In this document: piece after piece, positions 6,476-49,377 of the stretch
Layout: each line of letters starts with the position of its first letter
How positions within the stretch are numbered: position 1 is the first letter of the stretch
Assembly (NCBI GenBank): GCA_038061755.1
Contig: JBBTYN010000002.1
Coordinates: 15,312-79,311, forward strand
Reading direction: 5' to 3'
Origin: Patescibacteria group bacterium
GTDB lineage: Bacteria; Patescibacteriota; Minisyncoccia; Phycocordibacterales; UBA9973
Length of the DNA stretch: 64,000 bases
Notes under the pieces: model-generated
What the model saw: the letters and a program-made list of their open reading frames with translations, nothing else
What the model was told of the DNA's origin: nothing
Database searches by the model: none
Translations under genes and position numbers: made by a program

Positions 6476-7544
6476 TTTTCGTTTTAGCTAAAATTTTATC
6501 TTTTTCAATATCACTTAAAAATTCCATTAAAATCACCGCTAAAGGAATAGCAAGAATCGCTCCCCAAATTCCACCTAATTCAAAACCAACAACAACAGCT
6601 AAAATAATAACAATTGGCGAAAGTCCAACAATTTTCTTTATAATTAGAGGAGTAAAAAGAAACACATCAAATTCATGAACAATAATATAAGCCATAGTTA
6701 CCATAAAGGCGCTACCAAATCCATTGGAAATATAAGAAAAAGCAAAAGTTGGAATAAGAGCAACAAGAATACCATAAGGAACCATTTCAAAGATACCTGT
6801 GATGATAGCTAAAAGTAATGCGTATTCTATGCCCAAAAGAGAAAGTATTAAATAAATAAGAACTCCAACAACAAAACCTAAAAGCATTTGCCCTTTTACC
6901 CAAAGACCTATTTTTCGGCTTGAGCGCGTCCACAAGTCTACTATATAATCATCGTATTTAGCAGGAACAATAATGTAAAGAAAATTCTCTATTCCTCTTT
7001 CTTGTATTGAAAAATAAAAAGAAATAAGAATAATTAATACAAAATTAAAAATACTTCCGAAAGCCACTGAAAGAATTTGTATAAATCCGCCAGAAAGATT
7101 AAGCACGAAAGCTTTCGATACAGATAGAAGCGTAACAAGTGAAAAATTTCCTGAAAGAGATCCAACTATATCTTTAGCGCCAGAAAATGCTTCATTTTGG
7201 AAAAAATTAAAAAAAGAAACATTTGGAATATATGTTGAAAGAAAAGTAGAAAAATTATAAATTTCTGTTATCAAAAGTGGAGCAAAAAGATAAAACATTC
7301 CACCTAAAAAAAGAAGTGCTATAACATAAAAAACAACAATCCCAAAAATTCTATTCTTAATTCCTATTTTTTTAAAATGTGGAACAGCTGAATCAATAAA
7401 AGAAGCGATTACAATTGCCGTTAAAACTACTAAAACTAAATCCATTAAGAAATACAATAAAAATATAAAAATTGGCACCAGAAAAAATTTCACTATGGTG
7501 CTGGTGGATATAGAGATATGATTAAAATCACTTTTTTCTGGCAT
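6468..7544 (-). CDS. AI-2E family (PerM/UPF0118) transporter
   Basis: 358 aa polytopic membrane protein with AI-2E-like topology and conserved C-terminal GLSP...GxxGxxLAIPL region. Confidence 0.55.
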   Translation of the reverse strand: MPEKSDFNHISISTSTIVKFFLVPIFIFLLYFLMDLVLVVLTAIVIASFIDSAVPHFKKIGIKNRIFGIVVFYVIALLFLGGMFYLFAPLLITEIYNFSTFLSTYIPNVSFFNFFQNEAFSGAKDIVGSLSGNFSLVTLLSVSKAFVLNLSGGFIQILSVAFGSIFNFVLIILISFYFSIQERGIENFLYIIVPAKYDDYIVDLWTRSSRKIGLWVKGQMLLGFVVGVLIYLILSLLGIEYALLLAIITGIFEMVPYGILVALIPTFAFSYISNGFGSAFMVTMAYIIVHEFDVFLFTPLIIKKIVGLSPIVIILAVVVGFELGGIWGAILAIPLAVILMEFLSDIEKDKILAKTKNE

Positions 7545-7574: not shown

Positions 7575-7627
7575 AAAAAATAAAAAGAAAGGGCCGAAGG
7601 AAAAGCGTCGGCTCTTCCTTCGGCCCT
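7575..7627 (-). terminator. Rho-independent terminator after 7626..8078 gene
   Basis: GC-rich hairpin AGGGCCGAAGGAA...TTCCTTCGGCCCT followed on minus strand by TTTCTTTTTATTT. Confidence 0.7.
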
Positions 7628-8078
7628 AAAAGACCTTGATTTTTACTTTCGGCAAATGTGCGAACTGTTCTTTTTTCGCCTTTGCCCGTTTTTTTAGGGT
7701 TACTACATACACTTCATCGAACCCTAATTCAAACGCTTTTAACAGGTCGTCGCCGTTTATCGGGCAAAGCACTGATCCCGCATACAAAATCGGCGAAACG
7801 ACGACAACTCCTTTCCCGACAAATTTGTCTTGGAGTTTTTTCTCTTCATGTTCCAAGACATCCCTCATAATCATCCTCTCCTCCCATGTTTTTGTGACCC
7901 TGCGATTAAGTTCATCGTATTTTACGACATACCCAGCTTTTTCTAGGGCGGCACTGATCTTTGTTCCGCCTCCACAGATTACAACAACATAGTTGTCTTT
8001 TGCTTTTTTAACAACAAAATCAAAGAACTTTTGGCTGTCGGTTATATCGCCGGAGCCTTTGACTAAAATATTTTTCAT
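7626..8078 (-). CDS. small amino-acid-kinase-fold-like protein (PyrH/IPK-like motifs), function unknown
   Basis: ILVKGSGD ... VVVICGGGTKIS pattern resembles the AAK family, but the protein is only 150 aa. Good SD (AAAGGAGGG) upstream. Confidence 0.3.
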   Translation of the reverse strand: MKNILVKGSGDITDSQKFFDFVVKKAKDNYVVVICGGGTKISAALEKAGYVVKYDELNRRVTKTWEERMIMRDVLEHEEKKLQDKFVGKGVVVVSPILYAGSVLCPINGDDLLKAFELGFDEVYVVTLKKRAKAKKEQFAHLPKVKIKVF

Positions 8079-14190: not shown

Positions 14191-17100
14191 TTATCTTTTC
14201 TCAATTTTTACCTTAAAAACTAACTCATCTATTTTTATCTCTTGCCATGAGTTTATCGAAGGGTCTTGTCCATCATTTTCTTTAAATTCTATTTTGGAAA
14301 CTAGCACTGTCTTTTTCATGTCATTTTCAAATTTTTGAATTAATTTTTTACCTGCATCATTGGTTTCGAAAACAATTGAGATAACATGACTTGGAGTAAG
14401 ACCAATCTTTTTTCTCATATCCTGCAAAGCACGCACAAGCTCGCGATAATCTCCTTCTTGTTTTAAATCTTTTGTAATATCTGTATCGAGACTTACTTTA
14501 TTAATGCCCATTTTTATTTTTAAAATATAAACAATATTTTTGATATTTAATTCATTTTTTATTATCTCAATATATTGGTCAGACAATTTTTCAGCAATAA
14601 TTTCTAGCTTATTTAATGGTTGACGAACTTTAATACCAGCTTTCTGTCGAGCTTCCAAACCAAGGGTTACAACACTTCTAACTGTTTCCATCTTCTCTAA
14701 AACTTTCGGTTCAAAAAACGAAAAAATTTTAAATTTTTTCGTTGGCCAACTCGCCAAATGCACACTCTCTCTGTCATCTTCATTCTTTAATCGTAGCCAA
14801 ATATTTTCTGAAGTAAATGGTGCAAAAGGGGCTAAAAGTTTTGTAAGAGTTTTTAGCACAAAATATAAAGTTTCTTTTGCTTCTTTTTCTCCATTCTTAA
14901 TTCTGTCGCGAGAACGACGCAAATACCACGTAGAAAGATCTCCAATAAAATCTTTTATTGCTCTGACTGGCTCAAGCAACTTATAATCATCCATTTTTTT
15001 TGTGGATTCACTAATTAATTCGTCTAGTCGCGCCAAAATCCATTTATCTAAAATATTTTTAGAATTTGGCTGATTATTTGTCTCTAAATTTTTATCTCTG
15101 TAAAGCTCGTAAAAAATAAGTACATTATAAAGCAAACCAAAAACTTGTTGATGAAGTAAGGCAACAGTTTTTTCATCAAAATTTTTAGATTCTCCTGGCT
15201 GATTGACCGAATACATCCAAAGACGAAGAGTATCAACACCATATTTATCCATTGCTTCCCATGGATCAACAATATTGCCGAGAGATTTAGACATTTTCTT
15301 GCCTACAGCATCCATCAAGTGCCCGAGACAAATTACATTTTTGTATGCCTTATTTCTCCCCATAAGTATTCCAACGGCATGCAAGGTATAAAACCACCCG
15401 CGAGTCTGATCTATCGCTTCTGAAATAAAATCTGCAGGATAATTAATTTTTTTAACTGAAAATGGATAATGATCTTGCGCAAATGGCATACACCCAGAAT
15501 CAAACCAAACGTCCATCACCTCTTTGGTGCGTGTTAATTTTCCGTCGCAACTACAAACAAGATTAATTTCATCAATATAAGGTTTATGTAGATCCATCTG
15601 ACCACCACTATTTCTAGGCAACTGTAAAAAACCACATTGAAAAACTTCTGCATTCTGAATAACTGGATATTTAGTATTTAAATTATTTAATTCTTGCTTT
15701 ATACTTAAAGCTTCATAAGAAGACAACAAAAGACGAATTGGATATTCATGAGATATAATCAAAATATTTTTTCCAGAATATTTTTGCTCTAAATCTTGTA
15801 GAACATAAATCATCCTTTTTCGAACATCTTCATCTGTTTCTTTAGATATTACTACTTCAGACTCTCGTAATCCCTTGTTTATAATAACTTGATCTTTAGT
15901 AAATCCAAAAGTATTAGCTATAATTTCTGCTGTTTGTTTTGTTCTGGTAAAATTTGAAGATATAATAACATCTGGCTTGAATTTTAAGCTTTTTGACATT
16001 AACCTGACTTGTTCTCTACCTTCTTCTGTTAAAGCATCATTATCCTCACCAGGATTAAAACTCTCCACATTTTTTATATTAGCAAGAGAACCTCCATGTC
16101 GCATCACAAAATATTTATTTCCTGACTTTTTTGTTTTATTTTTTAGGTCTTCAATACTTCCAATAACATCAATTTTTTTACAAGACTCACAGATCCAAAC
16201 TGGAAGCGGGGTACCCCAATATCGCTCACGAGAAATTGCCCAATCTTTTATCTCCCTTAACCATTCACCAAAACGTCCGTCACGAATATGCGCCGGTTCC
16301 CATTTTATTCCTTTATTCTCTTCTATCATCTTCGCTTTTATTTTTGAATCGGAAACTTTTATATACCAAGAATCTCGAGCATAATAGATAAGCGCCGTAT
16401 GGCAACGCCAACAATGAGGATATGAGTGTTCATATTTTTCTTTTTTAAATAAAAGTCCCCTATGCGCTAAATCTTTTATCACGTCTACAGCCACATCTTC
16501 ATCTCGTACAAATCTGCCTTCAAACATCCCTGTACCTAATAAAAATTTTCCATCAAGCCCGACAATGTGATGCTTTGGCAAACCAATCTTTGTCCCAAGT
16601 TCAAAATCATCCTGTCCATACATTACTGCTGTATGCACAACTCCCGTGCCGTCTTCAGTCGTCACAAAATCCGCTCCGTAAACCTTAAAAGCTTTTTTTA
16701 ATTTATATTTCTCGCTTTCAGAAATTGTATTTTGAAGATAAGGATAAAGTGGTTCGTATTCTAAACCGATTAAATCTTTACCTTTAATTTCTTTAACTAT
16801 TTTATATTCTCCGTCTATTGCAGAAAGTCTTTCTTTAGCTAAAATTAAAAATTCTTTTTCTATTTTTATTTTTATATAAATAATATCTTTTCCTACAGCC
16901 AAAGCAACATTTCCAGGCAAAGTCCACGGAGTTGTCGTCCAAGCAAGAATATAAGTACTGGTGGAAATGTTACTTTTGCAGGGTGTCTCGCAGGCTGACG
17001 AGCCGAGAGGCAGCGCTGTGTCAGCAGACACAGACAGCGACCCTGCAGAAGTAACATTTCCGCCAGTTACTCGAAACTTCACATACACTGACAAATCTTT

Positions 17101-17718
17101 CACATCTTCATATCCTTGCGCAAGTTCGTGCGAAGATAAAACCGTGCCACAGCGTGGACACCAAGGCACTACTTTATAATCTTTATAAAGTAAATTTTGT
17201 TCATTTATTTTTTTTACAACATTCCAAACAGATTCAATGTAATCATTATGATAAGTGACATATGCATTTTCTTGATCCACCCAATATCCAATCCGATGGG
17301 TAAACTTATTCCAAATATCTAAATATTCCCAGACACTTTCTTTACATTCTTGATTAAATTTCGCTACACCATATTCTTCAATCGCTTTTTTAGAATTAAG
17401 CCCAAGCTTTTTTTCTACCTGCAATTCTACCGGTAATCCATGCGTATCCCATCCACCTTTTCGGCGAACATGAAAACCCTGCATAGTTTTATATCGAGGA
17501 ATTGCATCTTTAAATGCTCGAGCTTCCAAATGATGAATTCCCGGCTTGCCGTTCGCTGTCGGTGGACCTTCATAAAAAACAAACTCCCCTTTAGGTGAAT
17601 CTTTTTCTAGAGATTTTAAAAAAGTTTTATTTTCTTTCCAAAATTCTAAAATCCGCTCTTCGCGAAGAGCTGCATCACTTTTTTTGTTAGAATTTTCTTT
17701 CTGAACTTCCTTGGCCAT
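14191..17718 (-). CDS. ileS: Isoleucyl-tRNA synthetase carrying an inserted histidine-phosphatase-like domain
   Basis: HHLEAR (HIGH), WTTTPWTLPGN, KMSKSLGN. About 165-aa insert with RHG...SHE motifs between the zinc-knuckle region and DLHKPYID. Confidence 0.9.
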   Translation of the reverse strand: MAKEVQKENSNKKSDAALREERILEFWKENKTFLKSLEKDSPKGEFVFYEGPPTANGKPGIHHLEARAFKDAIPRYKTMQGFHVRRKGGWDTHGLPVELQVEKKLGLNSKKAIEEYGVAKFNQECKESVWEYLDIWNKFTHRIGYWVDQENAYVTYHNDYIESVWNVVKKINEQNLLYKDYKVVPWCPRCGTVLSSHELAQGYEDVKDLSVYVKFRVTGGNVTSAGSLSVSADTALPLGSSACETPCKSNISTSTYILAWTTTPWTLPGNVALAVGKDIIYIKIKIEKEFLILAKERLSAIDGEYKIVKEIKGKDLIGLEYEPLYPYLQNTISESEKYKLKKAFKVYGADFVTTEDGTGVVHTAVMYGQDDFELGTKIGLPKHHIVGLDGKFLLGTGMFEGRFVRDEDVAVDVIKDLAHRGLLFKKEKYEHSYPHCWRCHTALIYYARDSWYIKVSDSKIKAKMIEENKGIKWEPAHIRDGRFGEWLREIKDWAISRERYWGTPLPVWICESCKKIDVIGSIEDLKNKTKKSGNKYFVMRHGGSLANIKNVESFNPGEDNDALTEEGREQVRLMSKSLKFKPDVIISSNFTRTKQTAEIIANTFGFTKDQVIINKGLRESEVVISKETDEDVRKRMIYVLQDLEQKYSGKNILIISHEYPIRLLLSSYEALSIKQELNNLNTKYPVIQNAEVFQCGFLQLPRNSGGQMDLHKPYIDEINLVCSCDGKLTRTKEVMDVWFDSGCMPFAQDHYPFSVKKINYPADFISEAIDQTRGWFYTLHAVGILMGRNKAYKNVICLGHLMDAVGKKMSKSLGNIVDPWEAMDKYGVDTLRLWMYSVNQPGESKNFDEKTVALLHQQVFGLLYNVLIFYELYRDKNLETNNQPNSKNILDKWILARLDELISESTKKMDDYKLLEPVRAIKDFIGDLSTWYLRRSRDRIKNGEKEAKETLYFVLKTLTKLLAPFAPFTSENIWLRLKNEDDRESVHLASWPTKKFKIFSFFEPKVLEKMETVRSVVTLGLEARQKAGIKVRQPLNKLEIIAEKLSDQYIEIIKNELNIKNIVYILKIKMGINKVSLDTDITKDLKQEGDYRELVRALQDMRKKIGLTPSHVISIVFETNDAGKKLIQKFENDMKKTVLVSKIEFKENDGQDPSINSWQEIKIDELVFKVKIEKR

Positions 17719-17845: not shown

Positions 17846-18121
17846 ATGAAAATAGAAGAAAAAGAGCTTATAAAAAAAGCAGCAATACAGTTTCCGGATG
17901 GAGAAATTTTAACTGGAAAAGGACACGATGAAATACTTGAACGTGACGAATGTTTAGACAAAATTTTTAGTACTCAATCTCTAGGTAAAAGAAGTGAGGG
18001 ATTCGTGACAAATAAAGGACGATTCGTATCTAGACAAGAAGCTGATGAAATTGCTTTCAAGGCTGGGCAAATTAAAAAACAAAGAGGGTGGCTCCAAAGC
18101 CAAGATTTAAATTTAGAATAA
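17846..18121 (+). CDS. hypothetical small protein
   Basis: SD GGAAGGA 6 nt upstream of ATG; charged, non-repetitive 91-aa product; no motif recognised. Confidence 0.4.
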   Translation: MKIEEKELIKKAAIQFPDGEILTGKGHDEILERDECLDKIFSTQSLGKRSEGFVTNKGRFVSRQEADEIAFKAGQIKKQRGWLQSQDLNLE

Positions 18122-18182
18122 AATTTAGATATAGTTACTCAGAATTATTGTATTATAAGTTGTGGCTGACCCTAATTATTAA

Positions 18183-18587
<405 letters not shown>

Positions 18588-18615
18588 AATTTATTTAAAA
18601 AACATGTTAAAAACC

Positions 18616-21600
18616 TTAATACGACACATCAAGGTTGTCCTCATTAGTTTTTAATGTCACTGCCACAAACCCCTGCTTTTTAGTTGTGGTAATATTCTTC
18701 CCAATTTTTTCTTTAATAATAGTTAAGTCAATAGCTTTTTTATAATTAAATGTATATTTTTCTACATTCTTAATTGTTATTTTTGTATCTAAATCAGTCA
18801 GAACTCCTTTCTTCTCTTGCCAATCATAAACTATATTAGTATTTGGAACGATTGTAATAATACCATTTCTGATTATTTTATTGTAAGAGAATTTAAGTTT
18901 TGTATTATTTTCTCTTAATTTAATAAAAGGAATTATTGTTGTATTTCCAGAATTGTCCGTAAGAGTTACAGATGTTTTTGTAATAATTATTGTTGGATTT
19001 TTATCTATTGCATCTTGCGCAGAGAAAACTACATCTTTGGTATTTATATTAAACGTTACTTGTAATTCTGGAGGATTTATATCATATACTGTTATCCCGT
19101 CTAGTGTAGCTTGTAATGTTTTATCTATTGTTCCATCTCCATTTTGATCAATTTTTAAATCAGTGTTTAATACTTCAGAATCAGGAGTAATATTCATTGT
19201 GGCTATAGTAGAAGATGAGGAGGGAATACCTTGAAATGAAGTTGATTCTGAAATAGAATTACCTTCCTGTTTTTCCACGTCTAGAGAAAAGCTACCCTGT
19301 TGATATCCTTGCATTTTCAGAGTATAAGAAATACCGGTAGGTATTGAAATAAATTGTACATCCCCTATTTTTTCATAATTTACACCCGGAATTTCTTGTT
19401 TAATTTCTTTAGTTATTGGATCCTCGCCTGTGTATCTACCTTGGGTATCCATAATTCCTAATGTAAGTGGTGAATGAAGGGTATAATGGAGACGAGGTTT
19501 GTTAGAAATTAAAGTTGAAGTATCGTTAACTAAAACATTATTCGTATCAATAAAAGTAGAATCTTTAATTTCAGAATTTATAAAATCAAGAAGATCTGAT
19601 ACTTCTAAGATGTCTCGATGAACTCTGTCTGGAATATTTTCTTCATTATATTTATTTAAATCCACCCACCATCTTTCGACATTTGGAGATTGTGACATCC
19701 ATAAAGCGCTTGGTACCACTACAACTCCATCTCCATCAATAACTTTACGAGGTTTATAGGAAAGATATTCATTTCCAGAAAAATCAACATATGCTTTGTA
19801 ATCTAATCCCACGGTTGTTTCTTCTCCCCATCCTGCAACTTGAATCACTTTCGTATTTGGTGACGGCTGCCAATTGTCAAGTATTTGGTGCACAGCTTGT
19901 GCTTGATCATATAAAGTATTATTACCATTATTTGGATGTACAGTATCACTAAAAGATGGTTTAATTCTGCTTTCTTCTGTTCCTAAAATATAATTTTTTA
20001 AATCAACTTCATCTGAAATATTTAATCCGTATATTGATTTTTGTAAATTAAAAAATAATTTATTTTCAAAAGTAATCAAATTTTCTGGAACAAATGGAAC
20101 TTGAGGCATTGTAAAATAACCAGCTGATGGTAAAAGATTATAAACAGAAGACATATTTTCAGAAAGCTGTCTTGATCTATCTGCTCTCATGATAAAGCCA
20201 AAAGGACCAATCTCTGAGCCATGTAATAAATTAATCACCGCGTCAGGTGTACCTACTTGCGGAACTGCAATCAATATAACCTTATCAATTTTATCATAAA
20301 GAGGATTATTAGTATCTTTTAATTTCTGAATTAAAGCTTTCGCGACCAAGCCTCCATTGGAATGAGCAATAATCGTAACCTTTCCAGATTTAGAACTTTT
20401 TTGTAGATCTTCTAACTTTTTAAAAATAAAAGACTCAGAAAAGTTTTGAAACGTATTGTACGAAATATTACCGTTAAAACTAGCTCCATTTGTAATAATA
20501 TCACCAAGAGAAAGTCTCCAATCATATGGAATAAAATCATAATCTGCAATAATTTTTTCATCATTTTTCCACTTTTTTAGATCACTAATAAAAGATTGAT
20601 ACATATTGAAGCTATATACATCGTCAACGATTCCTGTTTCATCTAATTCTCCATTATTTTTTGTATCATCTTTAGTATGGATAGTACTATTGATACTTTT
20701 TCCTTGATTATCTAATGCAAGATCAGCGTGATTTGAATCATTATGAGATACCCACAATTCTTTATCACCAGAACCGTCTTGTTCATATAATCTAGAACCC
20801 ATTATCCCAGGCAGAAAAAGAACATTAGAAAAACAATCCACAGTATATACTGTAACTAAAGGCTTCATCACCACTGTTCCATTTTCACCCGCCAGAACGC
20901 AACCATAGTAACAATATGTGCCAGCTAGAGCATTTGCCGTCCCAGAAAAGTCAAAAGTTTTATAATAAATTGCTATTCTTCCACCTGCCCCTCCGATTAA
21001 TCCATAAGGCCAAGAACTATTTCCACCATTTGCTTGGAAAGCACCAGTGCCACTTATTTTATTTGCATTTACATAAATACTGCCTCCACTAACTCTATCA
21101 TAATTTCCATTTGCTGAAACAATACCATCATTTTTAAAAATATTGTCTACCACCAAACGAATCGCACCACCACCACGACGACTCTCTGTTCCACTCCCAA
21201 AGTCTACAGGCTCTGTATCTGAACCATAAACAGGTTTCGCCATGGCGCCTCCGCCTTTTCCGCCATAACTCGCCCCAGCTTCATAAAATGTATCTGGAGT
21301 TCCAAGACCATTAATATATCCTTTTCCATCAGCAGAAATTGAAGAACCATTTTCAATATTAAGATTTGAAACTTTTAAAGAAAGTATTTTCTCAGGAATT
21401 ACAGTAATATTTGAATTTCCTAAAATGGAAACTAGGTTTGCATTAATAATCTCCCCACCTGAAAGAGTAAGTGTTGAAGTTTTATCAAGAATAATATCTT
21501 TGGCTGTTATATTTGCCCCATCCTCCGATGAAACCTTTGCGCCATTAGAAATATTTATATTATTTAAATTAAACGGGCTATCATTTTTTTGAAAACGCCA

Positions 21601-42315: not shown

Positions 42316-43488
42316 TTAATTCTCTATATACCCCGGACTTTTCTTTTGTGAACAAGAGTTACTTCCACAAGTCCATGTCCATTTAGAAGGACTACTTATT
42401 GGATTTGTGCCAATAATAGTGCCATCACCACATGTATAGTGGTTACTAAAACAAGTAGTACCACTAGAAAGTGTACATGATGTATTTGATCCACCATTAG
42501 AACCAAGACAATCCCAGGCAGAAGAACCATTACCATTCGCTGGGGTACCTGAACTACAAGTATTGTAAACTAACGGAGAAGAACAGATACCATTAATAAG
42601 TGCCGGTGCACACTTTATTCCATCCCAAATAGTTCCAGTATCGCAACTCGCAGTGGCTAAGGCAGTGGCAAGTTGTTTTGCATTATTATAAAGAAAGAAT
42701 GCTCTACTTTTATGGGTACTCTCAATTATATATGGAATAACAACACCTGTTTTGGTACCTACATCATAAGTACCGGTAGTTGGGGGCTTAATAGGGTTTG
42801 AAGTTGAAGAAACAATAGGAAAGTTAGCTGAAGTAGCTCCGCTATTATTGGTACTACTAGTTACAGACGACCCAAGAACAATTTCAGGATTTATTACACT
42901 CCAAGAAAGAGTTGTGGTACAACTGTTATTTCCTACTGTTATTATACAATTAGAAGCAGTTAGAGTACTGGACATTGCGGGGGCGACAACAACACCATTA
43001 AAATTGATCCAGCCCACGACTTCACTTCCCCAAGCGTAACCCGAAAAAGCAGTACCCGATAAAGTTACACCATAACTAGTGCCTGTAAGGGAAATCCAAC
43101 CATCCCAACCACTACTGCCATCTCCTCCAGACAGAGCTTTTGCCCAACCAGTCAAGCTACTACCAGCCACTTTGGCATTATCAGCAGTAGTTCCACCTCC
43201 AGTTGGAAAACCAGAAAGTTCTCCAAACTTTACCCAACCAATATTTGATGACCAAGCATAACCAGTAAGATAACCAGTTGTTAAATTTTTAGTTACGCCA
43301 TAACTTGAAGTCGCGCAATTATTACCAGGATTCGTACAATTAAAACTTATCCAGCCAATATTAGATGACCAAGCATAACCAGACATATTGTCCGTAGAAC
43401 TTGCTGAAACTATAATAGGTGAAAGACAAAAAACAAATACTAGAACAAAAATAATTTTCAAGAAAGATTTTAAGAAAGAAATTTTCAT
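42316..43488 (-). CDS. Secreted repeat protein with GYAWSSNIGW(I/V)xF repeats and Cys-rich C-terminus (possible pilus-associated adhesin)
   Basis: Signal peptide; three copies of GYAWSSNIGWISF-like motif; last gene of pilB-led gene string. Confidence 0.4.
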   Translation of the reverse strand: MKISFLKSFLKIIFVLVFVFCLSPIIVSASSTDNMSGYAWSSNIGWISFNCTNPGNNCATSSYGVTKNLTTGYLTGYAWSSNIGWVKFGELSGFPTGGGTTADNAKVAGSSLTGWAKALSGGDGSSGWDGWISLTGTSYGVTLSGTAFSGYAWGSEVVGWINFNGVVVAPAMSSTLTASNCIITVGNNSCTTTLSWSVINPEIVLGSSVTSSTNNSGATSANFPIVSSTSNPIKPPTTGTYDVGTKTGVVIPYIIESTHKSRAFFLYNNAKQLATALATASCDTGTIWDGIKCAPALINGICSSPLVYNTCSSGTPANGNGSSAWDCLGSNGGSNTSCTLSSGTTCFSNHYTCGDGTIIGTNPISSPSKWTWTCGSNSCSQKKSPGYIEN

Positions 43489-43555
43489 TATTTTAATATT
43501 ATACCATTAAGATTACTAAAAAGGGTATAAAATTGAAATCTATACTGTGGATAAC

Positions 43556-43610
43556 GATACTAGCTGATACTAGCTAGATACTAGCTAGGACAGTCCTCGC
43601 TAGTGGTGTC
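43556..43610. repeat. REP-like palindromic element cluster A (tandem GATACTAGCT x3 plus palindrome CTAGCTAGGACAGTCCTCGCTAG)
   Basis: Read directly; homologous to 44283..44315 and 45337..45391. Confidence 0.8.
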
Positions 43611-44271
43611 AAATAAGATAACTTTCCACAAAATTATTAAAAGATTTAGTGTCTCTAAAATAATCAGGAAAGACTTTTTTATTCAAAATATTGCCCTCTA
43701 GCCTATCGACACCAATATAATCTTGATAACTAGAGTACCTATAAGATTTTAGAAAATCTTTCTTTTCACCAAGTGATTCTTTAATTTTCTTTTCCCAACC
43801 GGGGAATTTTATATCAAGTGAATTAAAATGAATATATGCAAAAAGTTTTCGCATATAAATGTCGTCAGACTTTACACATTTTGATTTAAATGGTCCGCCA
43901 AACAAAGCACCTTGTCTTTGATATTTAATATTAAAAAACATTGAATATCCTGTCCCTAATTTTCTCATAAACTTTGTTATCCCTCCATCCACTTCTTGGC
44001 GTATCATTAAATGAAAATGATTAGTCATCAAACACCATGCGCCTATAAATACTAATGGTTTTCCTTTTTCAATCACCATTATTTCTTCATAACTTTTATG
44101 TAGAATGTTTGTTAAATTGTTGAGCTTTATCACATCTTCATTATTTGCAACATATAAAAGCATTATGAATCTTTCATAATCTTTCTGTAATTTAAAAATA
44201 TTTCTTTTATCAATTCCTCTATTCCAAAGGTGGTAGTATTCACCAGTGACAAAAGGATCTTTTCGCAACAT
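43609..44271 (-). mobile_element. IS200/IS605-family Y1 (HuH) transposase, REP-associated tyrosine transposase (RAYT)-like
   Basis: EYYHLWNRGIDKRNIF, HuH motif LMTNHFHLMI, YQRQGALFGGPFKSKCV...YIHFN; flanked by REP-like palindromes on both sides. Confidence 0.7.
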
Positions 44272-44282
44272 CTATTTAATAT

Positions 44283-44315
44283 AACACACTAGCTAGGACA
44301 GTCCTAGCTAGTGTT
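44283..44315. repeat. REP-like perfect palindrome B
   Basis: AACACACTAGCTAGGAC-A-GTCCTAGCTAGTGTT, 12 nt upstream of the transposase start. Confidence 0.85.
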
Positions 44316-44344
44316 AAAAAAACAGTCCGAAATATTTCGGACTG
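44316..44344 (-). terminator. Rho-independent terminator of 44395..45156 gene
   Basis: Perfect palindrome CAGTCCGAAATATTTCGGACTG followed by T7 on minus strand. Confidence 0.7.
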
Positions 44345-44394
44345 CCCAATGATAGTTTTAACAAAATCATCAGAAATGAAAATTTTTGGAGATA

Positions 44395-45156
44395 TTAACG
44401 GGACCAAATCGGCATCAGATTTTCGTCAATATAAATGCTGAATACCAGCCCGGGCATACCTTGTTTAAAGGTGGAAAAACTTACATCCCAGGTCGCTTTT
44501 GACTCAAACGATCTAGCCAGGTCAAAAATCGCGGAAATATTAATTAACTCCTTCACATACTTGTTTCCGCTTAATTTTATTCCCCCGATATCCCCCGCGG
44601 CGTAATAATAATGAATTTTGTTGTTATTTTTAACGACCCAGGGGTACACAACTTTGTAGAATGTATTGAACAAATAGATCTCGGGGGAATTTACCACTTT
44701 GGCAAATTCATCCTGCATTTGAAACCCCGCGCCATTTATTTCAACCTCTTTTTTGAGGCTCCCTTGTATCTGCCAACTTTCGGACATGGTCCGATAATTA
44801 ATCGACGCGCTAACGCCGTTTTTTCCCGCTTCCTGCAAATGACCCAATGGGTGTATTAACGCCGCCGATACGAATCCAACAGAAGCAAGGCGGACAGCTT
44901 TTTCCCCAAGTCCGGCATCGTAAAAATTTATTAAGCCGGTCTCACTGGAATAATCCACATTATTTCTAATTTTCCCCGTTTCATTAGGGTTTTTGAAAAA
45001 CTTCACGTCCGCAATCCAGATTTTTTCGGAACTCGCAACGTTTTCCGTCTGACCCTTCCTATATGAAAGGGCGAGTATTAAATTTTCTTCCGCCGAAGCC
45101 ACGGAAACCGTTGCCAACAACATTGCCGCAACCAAAATCCCGATTATCTTTTTCAT
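44395..45156 (-). CDS. hypothetical secreted protein (elevated GC)
   Basis: Signal peptide MKKIIGILVAAMLLATVSVASA; GC visibly higher than genome background. Confidence 0.4.
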   Translation of the reverse strand: MKKIIGILVAAMLLATVSVASAEENLILALSYRKGQTENVASSEKIWIADVKFFKNPNETGKIRNNVDYSSETGLINFYDAGLGEKAVRLASVGFVSAALIHPLGHLQEAGKNGVSASINYRTMSESWQIQGSLKKEVEINGAGFQMQDEFAKVVNSPEIYLFNTFYKVVYPWVVKNNNKIHYYYAAGDIGGIKLSGNKYVKELINISAIFDLARSFESKATWDVSFSTFKQGMPGLVFSIYIDENLMPIWSR

Positions 45157-45336
45157 CCCGCACCTCCAAAAAATTTTAGATTATTTTATTGTAAAAGGAC
45201 AAAAAACATCCTTTATTGATTGTTTAATGTATTATACTACTTTTCTATTTTAAAGTCAACTACTTAGAAATGTAGGGTAATTTCTGCGTAATTTGTAAAA
45301 AATTATTTATTTTCCAATTTTTCAATGCGAGATTTT

Positions 45337-45391
45337 ACACACTAGCAAGGACAGTCCTAGCTAGCCTTTAGCTAGGATTGTTCTTGCTAGT
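45337..45391. repeat. REP-like element doublet C (two inverted copies)
   Basis: ACACACTAGCAAGGACAGTCCTAGCTAG and TAGCTAGGATTGTTCTTGCTAGT (inverted relative to the first). Confidence 0.75.
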
Positions 45392-45404
45392 ACTTGCCAA
45401 CATC

Positions 45405-46121
45405 TTACGGAAGCATTAATTTTCCTAGTAGGAGGTTGTTGCAAGTAACTTGACCGCCGCCGCAAACAGCATTACATTGATAATATTGACTAGGAAACCT
45501 GCAGTAAACGGTTATACAAGTAGCTGCCTCGGTGAGGGTCCCACCTGCGGGACACCCGTATGTTTGTCTATATATTGGGAAGCCAGTCTTTGATATGACG
45601 TTGCCGCCAACATCTAGATCACCTGAAACATTTACATTGCCACTTTGGTCTATAGCCATTGTTTTTACTCTAGCACTGTTAAGAAATTGTAAAGTGCCAG
45701 AATTAGTCTGTAATGAGTAACTCTGTGTTCCCGGTGATTGCAAAGTAAGCGCTGGACCAGGCCCGAAACCAACCTGGCCCCCGAAACCAGCCTTGCTCTT
45801 GCTCAAAGGTCTTAATAAAGAAACATCTCCCATAACAGATAATTTTGAAGCTGGACCTGTCGTCCCGATGCCAACATTGCCGTTTTTAACTATAAGACCA
45901 TTAGGAGCAGGAAGGTGCGTTGCATCTCCTGTATTGAGTACTAATCCCCCAGCTTTTGACTGACCTGAAAAGGTTACATTCAGTGGCGTATCGGTATTAT
46001 TACCAGGTGGAGGTGCTGTAGGACCAACATATTGACTATATGCAGAAACAAAACTAACTCCAGCTACTAATATTAATGCTAGAATGATAGATTTTATATT
46101 TTGTATTATTTTTGTTTTCAT
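45405..46121 (-). CDS. Secreted protein with tail-fibre-like motif (GNVGIGTTGPASKLSV) and Cys-rich C-terminus
   Basis: Signal peptide; motif GNVGIGTT.P..KL.V typical of phage tail-fibre-like beta-helix proteins; elevated GC. Confidence 0.4.
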   Translation of the reverse strand: MKTKIIQNIKSIILALILVAGVSFVSAYSQYVGPTAPPPGNNTDTPLNVTFSGQSKAGGLVLNTGDATHLPAPNGLIVKNGNVGIGTTGPASKLSVMGDVSLLRPLSKSKAGFGGQVGFGPGPALTLQSPGTQSYSLQTNSGTLQFLNSARVKTMAIDQSGNVNVSGDLDVGGNVISKTGFPIYRQTYGCPAGGTLTEAATCITVYCRFPSQYYQCNAVCGGGQVTCNNLLLGKLMLP

Positions 46122-46138
46122 ATTATTTTAATTTATTA

Positions 46139-46372
46139 TTAATAATTTGTTTTAGTTGGAGCGGTGGTGGAATCAATAAGTTGCTTTAATTCTTTGGTAT
46201 TCACTGGATTTGAGGTAGTGGCTGGAGCAGTGGTGGAATCAATGAGAGCTTGCATTTGTTGAGCTTCAGTAAGAGTTGGAGGAGATTTTGGTTTGAATAA
46301 AAAATAAAAAATAAATAAACCTAAAACGATAATAATCAGAACAGATACTGCTATCTTTTGATTTTTAGTCAT
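46139..46372 (-). CDS. small membrane-anchored protein with internal ALIDSTTAP repeats
   Basis: 77 aa, N-terminal TM, duplicated QxLIDSTTAPxxT segment. Confidence 0.3.
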   Translation of the reverse strand: MTKNQKIAVSVLIIIVLGLFIFYFLFKPKSPPTLTEAQQMQALIDSTTAPATTSNPVNTKELKQLIDSTTAPTKTNY

Positions 46373-46415
46373 AATTATTTATAAGTATAAAACAAAATAA
46401 AGATAAAGGGAACTT

Positions 46416-46438
46416 GGGGTGTGGATAACCCCCACACC
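46416..46438. repeat. Direct-repeat/hairpin motif GGTGTGG..ATAACCCC (left flank of GIY-YIG gene)
   Basis: GGGGTGTGGATAACCCCCACACC; related copy at 46737..46760 in same orientation. Confidence 0.6.
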
Positions 46439-46445
46439 TTTTATT

Positions 46446-46709
46446 TTATTTAAGACTTTCGGAGATTCTTCTTTTTAGTTGTCCTAACGCTTTTCCATCT
46501 TTCTTTAGATTATATTCTCTCGTTCTGGCGTCATGCTCATTAGCGCAAGCTTCATAATAACGAATTTCAAATGGTCTCCTTGCTTTAGTTGAACGATTAA
46601 GTCCATTGTTGTGTTCCGAAAGTCTTCGCTTCAGATCATTAGTTGAACCAATATATAATTTTTCATCTTTTAGACTTTTTAAAATATACACATAGTACAT
46701 AATAACCAT
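46446..46709 (-). CDS. Small GIY-YIG nuclease-family protein (YhbQ/Slx1-like)
   Basis: YYVYILKSLKDEKLYIGSTNDLKRRLSEHN GIY-YIG motif, conserved Arg, Glu, Asn. Confidence 0.7.
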   Translation of the reverse strand: MVIMYYVYILKSLKDEKLYIGSTNDLKRRLSEHNNGLNRSTKARRPFEIRYYEACANEHDARTREYNLKKDGKALGQLKRRISESLK

Positions 46710-46736
46710 TATATGATCTGAAGTTATAAAATGAAA

Positions 46737-46760
46737 GGTGTGGGGGATAACCCCAACAGC
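46737..46760. repeat. Direct-repeat motif GGTGTGGGGGATAACCCC (right flank of GIY-YIG gene)
   Basis: Read in sequence; shares GGTGTGG and GATAACCCC with 46416..46438. Confidence 0.6.
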
Positions 46761-46918
46761 TTCATTGACAAAAACTATATTTTCTGTTAGAATCTGTTAA
46801 GAATAATATTGTACAAGAACTGACAAAAATAGGACTGAATGTCCTTTGACATAAGAATAAAAAAATAGATTGGCTCATTTCGAGCAAAAAAAACGATACA
46901 TACTAAAAGGAGGATGTC

Positions 46919-48232
46919 ATGAAAAAGATACTTGCAACAGCAGTACTAATGATGTTTGTATTAGTAGGATGCGATGGCAGAGAAACGACATCGGCACCGA
47001 CACCGACAGATCCAACGCCACAGGCAACATTGGTTTCTATCAGCGTTACTCCGAGCAACCCGACCATAATGGTCGGGGCGACACAACAGTTCATTGCTAT
47101 CGGGGCATATTCCGACAGCACGACACAAAATCTGACGGTCTCCGCAACTTGGAGCTCGCCGGACACAGGCAAGGCGACAATTTCGTCAGGCGGACTGGCC
47201 ACAGCAGTAACTACCGGATTGGTAACAATTACGGCGACGTCAGGCAGTGTTTCGGGAACAGCTACATTGACGGTAGTAACCGTAACGTCACCGCCAGCTC
47301 CATATACAGCTCCGTCTGGTTGGTCACTTAGTCAAGTAACAACAGACGGAGCCAGTATTATTACTACGGGATCAAATGTATCCGGCGCAACCGCAATAGC
47401 TTTCAATAGCGATGGAACGATCAAGTGGCAAAAAAGTGAGCCTGGGACTTACGGAAAGTCCAAGGCAACTGGTGACTACACTTATGTTACCAGAACATAC
47501 CAAACCGGAATTGACTACAATTCCAGCACATCTATCGAGAAGATCAATAACTTGACAGGCGAAATAGTATCTACTGTTGTTGTGGGCACACAAACAGACC
47601 CCAATGGAGCAGCAGCTTCTTATTTAGGCTCGTTTGCAACCAGCACCAACGCAGTGTACGTCGCAGGAAGCGACGGCAATGGTTCGACAATCAAAATCTC
47701 CAAACTTGATTTGTCGTTAACCAACAAGACCTTTTTGTTGGGATACAAAAGTAGCGACTTAAGGGACATGGGAACAGTTGAAAGAAGCACGTCGTTCGGA
47801 AATTATTTTTATAGTATAAGCTCAGGCAGTATTGATGCTTATACATTAGACGGCGTGTATTTCGGGTACACCCTTGCTCTTCCTGGAGCAGAGTTCGTCA
47901 ACACCCTCCACAAAGGCAATGTGCAGTATGTATCAGGCTTACAAGCCGGAACAGCCTACGTCTGGGTTTATAAAGACGGAGACCTGCAAAACAGCTTCCC
48001 CTTGGGCACAGGATCTGCCGAAGGAATGGATTTCGGTCCTGATGGCGAAATGTATGTAGCCATCAGTGGAGGAGTCGGTCCAGTCAGGATTGATCACACC
48101 ACCGGCACCATAGCCTGGACCGGCACTACTGCCGGGCACTCAGTTGCTTACCTGAATGGCAAAATCTACGTCGCCACAGGAGGCAACAAAATTGAGGTAT
48201 TTGACGCCATAACAGGAGGTAAAATTAATTGA
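46919..48232 (+). CDS. Lipoprotein with Big_2 (bacterial Ig-like) domain and beta-propeller-like C-terminal region; about 50% GC, likely horizontally acquired
   Basis: Lipobox LVGC; ATLVSISVTPSNPTIMVGATQQFIAIGAYSD...TITATSGSVSGTATLTV Big_2 signature; strong SD AAAGGAGG; GC far above flanking DNA. Confidence 0.6.
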   Translation: MKKILATAVLMMFVLVGCDGRETTSAPTPTDPTPQATLVSISVTPSNPTIMVGATQQFIAIGAYSDSTTQNLTVSATWSSPDTGKATISSGGLATAVTTGLVTITATSGSVSGTATLTVVTVTSPPAPYTAPSGWSLSQVTTDGASIITTGSNVSGATAIAFNSDGTIKWQKSEPGTYGKSKATGDYTYVTRTYQTGIDYNSSTSIEKINNLTGEIVSTVVVGTQTDPNGAAASYLGSFATSTNAVYVAGSDGNGSTIKISKLDLSLTNKTFLLGYKSSDLRDMGTVERSTSFGNYFYSISSGSIDAYTLDGVYFGYTLALPGAEFVNTLHKGNVQYVSGLQAGTAYVWVYKDGDLQNSFPLGTGSAEGMDFGPDGEMYVAISGGVGPVRIDHTTGTIAWTGTTAGHSVAYLNGKIYVATGGNKIEVFDAITGGKIN

Positions 48233-48248
48233 TAGAATCATCAAGCTC

Positions 48249-48293
48249 ATAGCCCATCTTCAACAAAGTTGAAGATGGGCTATCTTTATTTTA
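48249..48293 (+). terminator. Rho-independent terminator
   Basis: Perfect 16-bp stem ATAGCCCATCTTCAAC-AAA-GTTGAAGATGGGCTAT then CTTTATTTT. Confidence 0.8.
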
Positions 48294-48315: not shown

Positions 48316-48930
48316 TTACGCTAAAAATTCTTTAACTTTTTCTTGAAAGAAAACTTGCATGTTTGTTTTTGATTGTTGTTTCTGAAGCCAGATAATCGCT
48401 TCATCGTCTAAATCCTCTGGTGATGTTAACTGCTCGCAAAACAATCTATCATTAAAAGTGTCATTATATTTTTCTTTTGCATCTAAAATTAGTGTTTCTA
48501 AGGTTGCATGTTTTTCAAAAAGAATAAAATATAAATCAACATAATCCTTAAAAGATCGCCTACGTCCAATGGTATAGGCTTTCATAGAAGCAATATCTAA
48601 AACAGAAGCTAGCGGTACAATGTTTGTATCAATAGTTTTATATTTCAAAATGAATGGATAATGCAAAAAAGTCATCTTAACATTTTCCACCATCAAAGTA
48701 AGTTCATTTTTTGTATTTACTAAAACAGAAACGGAATTGAATTTTTCTTCAATTTTTACAACTAAAGTTTTCTTAATAGGGTCGGGTGAAAAAAAATCTA
48801 AATCAACAGAAATACGATGCCCTATTTGTAAAGCTAGAGCTGTGCCTCCAGCTAAATAAAAATTATCACGCAAAAAACCACACATATCCCAAACCTTTTT
48901 TGTTTCTTGATTTAATGATTCGTAATGCAT
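48316..48930 (-). CDS. AbiEii/AbiGii-family nucleotidyltransferase (type IV toxin-antitoxin toxin-like)
   Basis: FYLAGGTALALQIGHRISVDLDFF N-terminal NTase motif characteristic of DUF1814/AbiEii. Confidence 0.6.
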   Translation of the reverse strand: MHYESLNQETKKVWDMCGFLRDNFYLAGGTALALQIGHRISVDLDFFSPDPIKKTLVVKIEEKFNSVSVLVNTKNELTLMVENVKMTFLHYPFILKYKTIDTNIVPLASVLDIASMKAYTIGRRRSFKDYVDLYFILFEKHATLETLILDAKEKYNDTFNDRLFCEQLTSPEDLDDEAIIWLQKQQSKTNMQVFFQEKVKEFLA

Positions 48931-48941
48931 ATTTTTTTAAC

Positions 48942-49211
48942 TTAAACAAACATCATACGCGCTAATTTTATGGCAGAAGGTCTGACAGCTGAAACAGAAA
49001 TATTATTGAGAACTTTTTTGACTTCCGGAATACCATAAAAGAATTTTATCCAACGCCAATGCTCAAAATTGCCATATAAAATGGTATTTGTAATAATTGT
49101 ATTTTTCATCTTTATGGGATCACATTTTTCAAAATCATATGACCATAATATAGACTTAAAATTATTAGGTATTTTATTCATATATACATTATAACATAAT
49201 TTAGATTGCAT
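48942..49211 (-). CDS. hypothetical small protein, possible cognate partner of AbiEii-like gene
   Basis: 89-aa ORF 11 nt upstream of and co-directional with NTase gene; no motif recognised. Confidence 0.3.
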   Translation of the reverse strand: MQSKLCYNVYMNKIPNNFKSILWSYDFEKCDPIKMKNTIITNTILYGNFEHWRWIKFFYGIPEVKKVLNNISVSAVRPSAIKLARMMFV

Positions 49212-49245
49212 TTAAATAGCACTTATGATATTGTTTTCATGTATG

Positions 49246-49271
49246 AGTCCTGTAGCAACAGGGCTTTTTTT
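49246..49271 (+). promoter_or_regulatory. Terminator-like hairpin in nusA leader (putative attenuator), followed by GC-rich structured segment 49290..49375
   Basis: AGTCCTGT-AGCA-ACAGGGCT + T7; then CCGCGTCCTAAAGGACTTACGCGG and CACGACGTG hairpins before nusA ATG at 49378. Confidence 0.5.
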
Positions 49272-49377
49272 AATAAAACTTAATAAAAATTGCGTCGCGT
49301 TTTGGCCGCGTCCTAAAGGACTTACGCGGCATGATTCCGCAGAATCAACAATTACACGACGTGATTTCGCAAAATCA

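Follow-up and report, generated by a model that had tools for sequence, protein, structure and literature searches.

A variable region of ~7 kb (42.3–49.2 kb) between pilB and nusA was analysed in a 64-kb stretch of DNA (hereafter the window) from a Paceibacteria/Nomurabacteria-like member of the Patescibacteria from Hainich groundwater, in which the type IV pilus operon (pilB) and nusA are divergently transcribed. Three genes in this region, here called A, B and C, encode secreted proteins. We consider it probable that the region is composed of native genes interleaved with independent insertions, with gene C being the present occupant of a swappable gene slot and gene A a piece of phage-related cargo. 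The native genes would be those for a 390-amino-acid (aa) protein, for B and for a 77-aa open reading frame (ORF), and a GIY-YIG nuclease gene and an AbiEii/DUF6922 gene pair would be further selfish insertions. Genes A and C would have come from different sources of ~43–50% GC.

An earlier note on this DNA had described positions 44395 to 48232 as one compositionally foreign island, recently acquired and possibly derived from a high-GC partner organism. Several parts of this description are borne out. The three ORFs are found and each is GC-enriched (A 42.7%, B 42.1%, C 48.2%), all three proteins show a signal sequence at the N-terminus, and gene C indeed encodes a Big_2 lipoprotein and has a strong Shine-Dalgarno sequence (AGGAGG). 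Signal peptides and the lipobox of C were judged by eye from the translations. Repetitive extragenic palindromic (REP) elements, a Y1-type gene resembling those of REP-associated tyrosine transposases (RAYTs), the GIY-YIG gene, and the pilus genes and nusA on the sides were all recovered as well. The GC peaks are real, but the background, given as ~30%, is 34.5% when measured over the whole window.

Loci used for comparison are designated by L-numbers and proteins by P-numbers. The surroundings of nusA were surveyed in 34 species-representative loci and in 80 of the 87 metagenome stretches retrieved with the hairpin of the nusA leader; NusA is encoded by 75 of the 80 stretches examined. The closest GTDB species representatives, as judged by NusA (74–86% identity), are labelled Candidatus Nomurabacteria or Paceibacterota, and their fragments have 34–53% GC. 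The gene order and junctions of the window recur in 17–18 contigs at 99.5–100% identity (Hainich groundwater, H41 well, 0.1 µm fraction; Logan assemblies). The products of A and C are identical to proteins of a metagenome-assembled genome labelled 'Patescibacteria group bacterium'. Because this identical layout is present in contigs from independent samples and assemblers, an assembly chimera is ruled out.

Composition of the three secreted-protein genes

In windows of 700 nt, GC content averages 34.5% (standard deviation 3.7%) and reaches its peak of 49.7% at position 47001, the highest value in the 64 kb. The steps in GC fall on ORF ends, and four spacers have background GC (45157–45404, 30.2%; 46139–46372, 32.9%; 46446–46709, 32.2%; 46710–46918, 31.1%). 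At synonymous sites, A and C depart strongly from the rest of the window. Their GC contents at codon position 3 (GC3) are 0.488 (z +4.6) and 0.461 (z +4.1), respectively, compared with 0.245 ± 0.053 for the 52 other ORFs, and the raised GC3 spans almost the full length of both genes. The likelihoods of their synonymous codons are similarly low (z −4.55 for A and −4.65 for C). Only one further ORF in the window (7626–8078) is an outlier in both GC3 and codon likelihood.

Gene B behaves differently. Its GC3 is 0.285 (z +0.75), its codon likelihood has a z of −1.78, and its excess GC is located at codon position 2 (GC2 0.485, z +2.6). The relative synonymous codon usage (RSCU) of B correlates with that of the window genes (r = 0.55) and of relatives (r = 0.54–0.64), compared with r = 0.14 for A and 0.20 for C against the window genes. 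Tetranucleotide composition sets C far apart from the window (r = 0.19, against 0.93 ± 0.04 in equally sized windows) and deviates mildly in A (z −2.4). The deviation of B (z −5.3) is attributed to amino-acid composition, given its native codon usage. Gene B is therefore native rather than foreign, and its GC stems from a protein rich in Gly, Pro, Ala and Thr. The same pattern is seen in the 390-aa protein, which has a repeated GYAWSSNIGW motif, a GC2 of 0.58 and a native GC3 of 0.215, and which is a second case of amino-acid-driven GC.

The codon usage of A is uncorrelated with that of C (RSCU r = 0.06), which argues for separate acquisition events. Among the sampled loci, the best RSCU matches to A and C are mid-GC, Patescibacteria-like fragments (L105, L047 and L037), and high-GC Proteobacteria loci give correlations of about zero or below. 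The GC3 values of 0.46–0.49 point to sources of about 43–50% GC for both genes. Translational selection was considered as a general cause of high GC3 and rejected, because housekeeping genes (aminoacyl-tRNA synthetases, nusA, trigger factor and H+-pyrophosphatase, a set without ribosomal-protein genes) have GC3 values of only 0.20–0.32.

The slot upstream of nusA and its occupants

Gene C appears to sit in a fixed expression slot, with a resident promoter, a hairpin in the 5′ untranslated region (5′UTR) and a Shine-Dalgarno sequence upstream, and a terminator and the nusA leader downstream (Table 1). Very divergent or unrelated secreted-protein genes would have replaced this coding sequence in relatives. 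The nearest relative is L128, whose NusA is 93.5% identical in amino acids and whose H+-pyrophosphatase (PPase) gene is 89% identical in DNA. Its alignment with the window runs through trigger factor, PPase and nusA into the leader as far as position 49200, and resumes in the 77-aa ORF, in B (N-terminal part) and in the 390-aa gene. Its gene order is 390-aa gene, REP-like sequence, B orthologue, 77-aa-ORF orthologue, TGTGGATAA box, −10 element and hairpin, a gene for a 542-aa secreted protein, nusA leader and nusA, without the RAYT gene, A, the GIY-YIG gene or the toxin–antitoxin pair. The slot flanks are conserved at 75–89% DNA identity, and the occupant has a GC3 of 0.462, compared with 0.276 for nusA. 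On the left side, the flank is shared by L128 and L023; in L128 the −10 region of the promoter is conserved, and the 5′UTR hairpin has a stem changed on both sides with pairing kept.

A homologue 51% identical to C, with 52.8% GC, resides directly before the nusA leader in L023, where it has the same promoter, hairpin and Shine-Dalgarno sequence as C but neither the GIY-YIG gene nor the toxin–antitoxin pair. The promoter TTGACAAAAACyATATTTTCTGkTAGAAT is common to the window and L023, and this 29-nt motif was found only in the population of the window and in L023. The contig of L024 stops within the −35 part of the same nusA leader. A further homologue, P0005, matches the C-terminal domain at 61% identity and lies beside a serine recombinase gene on a contig of 47% GC. 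In a profile search of 5.8 billion protein clusters, the family defined by this C-terminal domain has four members, C and three others. No more homologues of the domain were found in JGI metagenome contigs, IMG/VR or a phage collection, and a profile search of the PDB was empty.

Gene C likely encodes a surface-anchored lipoprotein that combines a Big_2 domain with a beta-propeller-like domain, and a role in adhesion or in contact with cells or phage is suggested by this domain content. The Big_2 domain occupies residues 40–119 (E value 1.3e-12, 48 bits, Pfam cut-off 22.8), the signal peptide ends in Cys within the lipobox MKKILATAVLMMFVLVGC (L-V-G-C), and the protein is rich in Thr, Ala, Gly, Ser and Pro. 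Hints of a propeller in the C-terminal domain come from a faint precomputed PQQ_2 match on P0006 and a sub-threshold Lactonase-propeller match on the L128 occupant. The structure model of C, made from a four-sequence alignment, is all-beta but unusable, with a predicted local distance difference test (pLDDT) score of 45.

The L128 occupant appears to be a different secreted protein in the same slot and orientation that shares at most a module with C. Clear homology between the two was considered and rejected. An earlier hidden Markov model (HMM) in support of it was circular, having included L128, and an HMM built without L128 gives an E value of 0.18, which is at the level of shuffled sequences. 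The L128 occupant and P0005 match by BLASTP with an E value of 3e-17, and a Cys-rich module common to both is the only clearly related part; the similarity of C to the L128 occupant at the C-terminus is marginal.

The distance between pilB and nusA is 0.2–0.9 kb in more distant relatives (L042, L041), which is taken as the ancestral state, and the closer ones carry 4–9 kb of variable genes. Around nusA, neither A nor the C-terminal domain of C was found in the 34 species-representative and 80 metagenome loci. The genes that other relatives have in the slot are unrelated to C, and many of them have a high GC3. The slot in L025 holds a CarboxypepD_reg-like lipoprotein gene (GC3 0.555) and a gene for a 265-aa secreted protein (GC3 0.477) in a background of 0.21–0.28. 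In L032 (3790–5904) it holds a gene for a protein with a Soli_cterm domain (Solibacter-type, TIGR03437, E value 1.5e-43), and a 704-aa ORF in the L139 slot has a similar Soli_cterm-like tail, by eye only. A 282-aa ORF located 0.4–1.2 kb upstream of nusA in L167 ends in a Por_Secre_tail of the type IX secretion system (T9SS; E value 8e-11). Lipoproteins with HExxH..DIMS motifs, recognised by eye and with one sub-threshold Pfam Matrixin match, are encoded in the slots of L164, L136, L184 and L132. In the subset compared, the slot occupants have no mutual BLASTP similarity. We also observed that the 265-aa protein of L025 (8986–9783, + strand) ends in ...KFSTRF, which by eye resembles the terminal Phe of outer-membrane beta-barrels and would be odd for a monoderm; it has no family match.

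Within 6 kb upstream of nusA, 10% of the 150 ORFs have a GC3 more than 0.15 higher than nusA itself; downstream, the share is 3.3% of 212 ORFs (Fisher odds ratio 3.25, p = 0.013). RAYT genes recur in 8, AbiEii genes in 6 and GIY-YIG genes in 4 of the 80 metagenome loci. Exchange in the slot would most likely proceed by recombination via the conserved flanks or by capture of foreign DNA. Clade members of 43–53% GC with NusA 83–86% identical exist, and such members could swap alleles through the conserved flanks.

The nusA leader forms the right border of the variable region and is conserved across the clade (L023, L025, L032, L037, L111–L190), with its hairpin within about 10 nt of the promoter-like element. 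It has no Rfam match. Autoregulation of NusA via a terminator is known in Bacillus, and attenuation upstream of nusA is a possible role of the leader hairpin. Some genomes have another GC-rich hairpin after this one.

Gene A, gene B and their neighbours

In the window, REP palindromes are located at 43581, 44289 and 45342, with a degenerate copy at 45369; none is expected by chance, and all copies in the window belong to this cluster. The arms 43580–43605 and 44287–44312 are inverted, are 92% complementary and flank the RAYT-like gene. The product of this gene scores 25.4 bits against Pfam Y1_Tnp (cut-off 23) and 26 bits against NCBIfam REP_Tyr_transpos, which is below the cut-off of 80. The resulting REP-RAYT-REP-A-REP-REP block (43489–45404) is specific to the window lineage when compared with L128, where only ~60–100 nt with a REP-like sequence, and neither a RAYT gene nor A, separate the 390-aa gene from B. 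Gene A is probably single-gene cargo within this block, inserted between the 390-aa gene and B. The arrangement is like known REP/RAYT systems in that a Y1-transposase-like gene is bracketed by inverted palindromes of 23–26 nt with a REP doublet nearby. Unlike those systems, there are just four REP copies in 64 kb, all in one cluster, and the NCBIfam RAYT model stays below its cut-off. The presence of a foreign gene between REPs is not a described RAYT activity and may be a coincidence.

In the product of gene A, a signal peptide is followed by a ~65-aa spacer and then by a ~150-aa phage-family domain in which H101 and H105 are invariant. Close homologues are few, with two from a word-index search (50–54% identity) and the cluster P0124/P0227 from a profile search and cluster look-up (~47%). 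A profile search of 1.84 billion representative proteins yielded 102 relatives, mostly of ~155 aa and without a signal peptide, that match residues 86–236. The two relatives that were located both lie in podophage-like structural modules. One (P0125) is on an IMG/VR viral contig between genes for an SU10-type adaptor (before) and an M15 peptidase (after), and the other (P0149) holds the same relative position on a contig with terminase, portal and adaptor genes. For the locus scan of this family, a 63-sequence alignment was too diverse, and a 7-sequence alignment recovered one IMG/VR contig. A search of a phage record collection with A gave nothing.

A family of ~155–215-aa phage proteins, represented by L106:10001-10522 and L109:10001-10648, was noted in a fixed spot in the structural modules of podophages with an SU10-type adaptor. 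These proteins carry an invariant H..x3..H and the motifs GAGFExQD and SGNKY; they belong to no Pfam or PHROG family and match no fold.

The AlphaFold model of A is confident for residues 80–252 (mean pLDDT 79) and matches no known fold in the PDB or BFVD. The possibility that A is an M50/site-2-protease-like metalloprotease was rejected, because the protein has HPLGH without Glu in place of HExxH. All hints in that direction are sub-threshold (Pfam M50 on P0199, E value 0.019; Foldseek 3b4r, E value 0.9; RseP, E value 0.95).

A homologue of A in L105, a fragment of 42.5% GC, has a GC3 of 0.469 among neighbours of 0.44–0.51, which suggests that mid-GC lineages carry A as a compositionally native gene. 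The intergenic regions around this homologue (L105:4808-5634 and 6403-6795) are dense in the short repeats GTCATTCTGACGTACTCGGAAGAATC and GCTCAGGATGACAAAC. In L020 and L021, homologues of A lie downstream of genes for proteins with the NVGIGT motif (four times in L021), and this order mirrors that of B then A in the window. The L021 protein has a Peptidase_S74 domain (Pfam), and its L020 counterpart has an S74-like tail by eye. Genes A and B may therefore cooperate as a phage-derived surface fibre plus accessory protein.

Gene B is like NVGIGT/Peptidase_S74 tail-fibre proteins of phages in that it carries the motif, as do the proteins adjacent to the A homologues in L020 and L021, and in its weak matches to PHROG tail-fibre families (E values 7e-4 to 5e-3). 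Unlike such fibres, its product is only 238 aa long, carries a signal peptide, is Cys-rich at the C-terminal end and lacks an S74 domain or any Pfam match, and the gene is chromosomal, of native composition and outside a prophage. An orthologue of 275 aa occupies the same place in L128 (GC3 0.236), as does an 88-aa counterpart of the 77-aa ORF. The synteny of B and the 77-aa ORF in L128 marks both as native. Homologues of the 390-aa gene lie beside pilB in many relatives, and its N-terminal part has 82% DNA identity in L128.

Two further units flank the slot. The GIY-YIG unit (46416–46755) has the look of a mobile element inserted at a defined target: the gene is enclosed by a 30-nt inverted repeat that duplicates the TGTGGATAA hairpin, and it is missing at the homologous spot in L023 and L128, both of which have a single copy of this hairpin. 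On the other side of C, the AbiEii/DUF6922 pair (27–30% GC) is a window-specific insertion, since in L023 and L128 no such pair separates the slot gene from the nusA leader; the gene 11 nt upstream of AbiEii encodes DUF6922, not a recognised AbiEi antitoxin as in AbiE type IV toxin–antitoxin systems. Rfam and tRNA scans returned nothing relevant in the region, and no tRNA was found in the 64 kb. The region has no integrase gene, only the Y1/RAYT-like and GIY-YIG genes. An origin of replication (oriC), suspected from TGTGGATAA boxes and a switch in GC skew, was rejected, since the window holds three such boxes (0.57 expected) and the skew tracks gene orientation. The hairpin scanner did not list the terminator-like element 3′ of A, which is a hairpin without a loop.

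Table 1. Features of the pilB–nusA region, in window coordinates (strand given as +, − or. for none).
Feature	Position	Strand	Remarks
390-aa secreted repeat protein gene	42316..43488	−	adjoins pilB; native left border; GC3 0.215
REP-type palindrome, left of RAYT gene	43567..43605	.	CTAGCTAGGACAGTCCTCGCTAG; 0 expected by chance
IS200/Y1-type RAYT-like gene	43609..44271	−	Pfam Y1_Tnp E 1.6e-5; GC3 0.226, native
REP palindrome, RAYT gene/gene A junction	44287..44312	.	
Terminator-like hairpin 3′ of gene A	44316..44344	−	CAGTCCGAAAT/ATTTCGGACTG then T-run; loopless, read by eye
Gene A	44395..45156	−	253-aa secreted protein; foreign codon usage; GC3 0.488
Gene A sigma-70-type promoter	45231..45259	−	TTGACT, 17 nt, TATAAT; 11/12 matches
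REP doublet, B/A spacer	45340..45391	.	
Gene B	45405..46121	−	238-aa secreted protein with GNVGIGTTGPASKLSV motif; native codon usage
77-aa membrane-anchored ORF	46139..46372	−	native; GC 32.9%
Hairpin with TGTGGATAA	46416..46449	.	left copy of 30-nt inverted repeat round GIY-YIG gene
Stand-alone GIY-YIG nuclease gene	46446..46709	−	Pfam GIY-YIG E 2.3e-19
Right copy of 30-nt inverted repeat	46726..46755	.	87% complementary
Slot-gene promoter	46765..46793	+	TTGACA, 17 nt, TAGAAT, upstream TG; 11/12 matches
5′UTR hairpin, conserved	46831..46845	+	AGGAC-TGAAT-GTCCT
Gene C	46919..48232	+	437-aa lipoprotein, Big_2 plus ~310-aa all-beta domain; GC 48.2%, GC3 0.461, GC2 0.532
C intrinsic terminator	48249..48283	+	perfect 16-bp stem then T-run
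AbiEii toxin gene	48316-48930	−	Pfam AbiEii E 3.4e-13
DUF6922 gene	48942-49211	−	Pfam DUF6922 E 1.5e-12
nusA leader, conserved right border	49200..49377	+	promoter-like TTGCAT...TGATAT, hairpin GAGTCCTGT..ACAGGGC, T-run

Elsewhere in the window, the ORF at 7626–8078 (− strand) deviates in codon usage to the same degree as A and C (GC3 0.45, codon likelihood z −4.44). Its 150-aa product has a faint amino-acid-kinase (argB) match, and the ORF is flanked on one side by an AT-rich intergenic region of 585 nt. The GC minimum of the window (23.6%, 18001–19000) includes a 134-aa ORF at 18183–18587 (− strand) with 18.8% GC, a GC at codon position 1 (GC1) of 0.18 and no family match. At 14191–17718 (− strand), a 1175-aa class I tRNA synthetase resembling isoleucyl-tRNA synthetase (IleRS) has a His_Phos_1 domain inserted at residues 537–620 (E value 7.7e-20).

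Alternative explanations and known systems

The most economical reading of the pilB–nusA slot is a replacement-type flexible island, which is a known kind of locus, filled by ordinary horizontal gene transfer. Composition, synteny, the pattern of presence and absence, and domain content are observed directly; how the genes were exchanged, who the donors were and what the proteins do are inferred. In replacement flexible islands, genes for exposed structures are exchanged by homologous recombination (Lopez-Perez, Martin-Cuadrado and Rodriguez-Valera 2014, PMC4033161). The slot is like these islands in occupying the same chromosomal position between conserved flanks (L128 and L023 share the 77-aa ORF, TGTGGATAA box, promoter, hairpin and nusA leader) and in its differing or highly divergent contents of exposed or secreted proteins (C, the L023 homologue, the 542-aa protein of L128, and other secreted proteins and lipoproteins). 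It is unlike them in that a single gene following a conserved promoter is swapped, rather than a glycosylation or O-antigen cluster of several genes. In addition, the comparison here is at the species–genus level (NusA 84–94% identity) rather than among strains of one species, and the occupants are compositionally foreign, some with hallmarks of other phyla.

Groundwater Patescibacteria are already known, from a survey by prediction tools, to have genomic islands and to exchange genes, for the most part with members of their own phylum (Gios et al. 2025, PMC12455944). The region resembles the islands presented there in phylum and habitat type, atypical composition, nearby mobile or defence genes and the plausibility of a within-phylum donor; the pilB–nusA slot and the families of A and C are not described in the parts of the survey consulted. 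Compared with a classical integrative island, atypical composition is seen for A and C only, patchy presence for A and for the C-terminal domain of C, and the integrase gene and tRNA target typical of such islands are lacking, the former in the region and the latter in the 64 kb.

Several points weigh against our reading of independent insertions and a swappable slot. All contigs with A or C represent one population (at least 99.5% identity), with no presence/absence polymorphism and no strain pair with alternative alleles. No donor of A or C was found, the nearest proteins being 50–61% identical. The word-index homologues of A and C sit on short contigs of 1.4–3.9 kb (6.8 kb for L105), and for L023 and L024 the recovered background consists of intergenic flanks, which do not give the GC of the organism. 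Pairwise comparisons of C with the L128 occupant give E values from 3.6e-4 to 0.46, a sign of weak homology. The slot gene is GC3-rich in the window, in L128 and possibly in L023, and homologues of A exceed their neighbours in GC3 in L020 (0.35 versus 0.24) and L021 (0.44 versus 0.31), a pattern equally compatible with repeated import and with a cause intrinsic to the genes. Finally, the functions suggested for A, B and C are read from their domains.

A bolder possibility, to which we give a minority weight, is that the slot upstream of nusA acts across the clade as a landing pad that captures secreted-protein genes of unrelated, mostly diderm neighbours or hosts behind the resident promoter for expression, or else that its raised GC3 arises from a local, recombination-linked, GC-biased process. 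Examples of captured genes would be those for the T9SS-tail protein, the Soli_cterm proteins and the metzincin-like lipoproteins. If true, such a landing pad would provide the symbiont with a rapidly exchangeable surface or contact repertoire.

It seems unlikely that the GC-richness of A and C is intrinsic and maintained in place, by GC-biased gene conversion at a recombination hotspot or by mRNA or codon selection, in fast-evolving long-term residents. This explanation would account for a slot gene that is GC3-rich in both AT-rich genomes with usable background (0.461 versus 0.26 in the window, 0.462 versus 0.276 in L128), for the GC-rich L023 slot gene between flanks of 28–32% GC, and for the elevated A homologues in L020 and L021. 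Slot genes of mid-GC relatives also lie above the background GC3 of their own genomes (L164, 0.76 versus 0.40; L184, 0.75 versus 0.50; L032, 0.63 versus ~0.47). However, the occupants in the subset compared are non-homologous and some bear the T9SS tail or Soli_cterm domain of other phyla, so replacement certainly happens. Moreover, A is missing at the site in L128 and at home in L105, the hotspot neighbours B and the 390-aa gene are not GC3-rich, and toxin–antitoxin and GIY-YIG genes in mid-GC relatives deviate downward in GC3.

The contiguous island of the earlier note, with its three secreted-protein genes (44395–48232) brought in by a single recent import from a high-GC partner or host, is very improbable. 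In its favour, a transposase gene, REP elements and a GIY-YIG gene accompany three GC peaks within 4 kb, the codon usage of A and C is strongly deviant, and Patescibacteria are known recipients of gene transfer (PMC12455944). Against it, GC stays at background in the spacers, the 77-aa ORF and the GIY-YIG gene, B has native codons and is syntenic in L128 together with the 77-aa ORF, and the codon usages of A and C are uncorrelated. A high-GC partner is not favoured either, given that the GC3 of A and C points to mid-GC sources, that mid-GC rather than high-GC loci match them best in RSCU, and that an A homologue is at home in L105. Horizontal acquisition, as the note proposed, stands for A and C, with their foreign codon usage, patchy presence and surrounding mobile or selfish elements, but not for B. 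A recent date is doubtful for C, which shares its position, promoter and nusA leader with the 51%-identical L023 homologue. As outcomes that would speak against its proposal, the note had named normal composition and orthologues syntenic in all relatives; A and C remain outliers at synonymous sites and B has a normal GC3, and such synteny is seen for B only, with C syntenic in a small subclade and A not syntenic.

An artefact, whether from chimeric assembly, binning error or amino-acid composition, can be dismissed as scarcely credible: the GC excess of B is truly compositional (GC2 z +2.6, normal GC3) and C is rich in Thr, Ala, Gly, Ser and Pro (GC2 0.53), but A and C are outliers at synonymous sites over almost their entire lengths, and the same junctions occur at 99.5–100% identity in the 17–18 contigs from several samples and two assembly sources.

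The reading as native genes interleaved with independent insertions makes the region an instance of known phenomena, namely horizontal transfer in Patescibacteria and replacement-type flexible islands. For annotation, it separates the true foreign genes A and C from B, a native gene with amino-acid-driven GC. GC content alone misleads in AT-rich genomes, and GC3 together with synteny settles the question. The pilB–nusA interval is a reproducible hotspot of surface-protein gene turnover in a family of groundwater Patescibacteria, with some of the genes bearing hallmarks of other phyla, and the conserved motif of the nusA leader makes the slot easy to retrieve from metagenomes. For uncultured episymbionts, such loci are an obvious place to look for factors that govern attachment to hosts or escape from phages.

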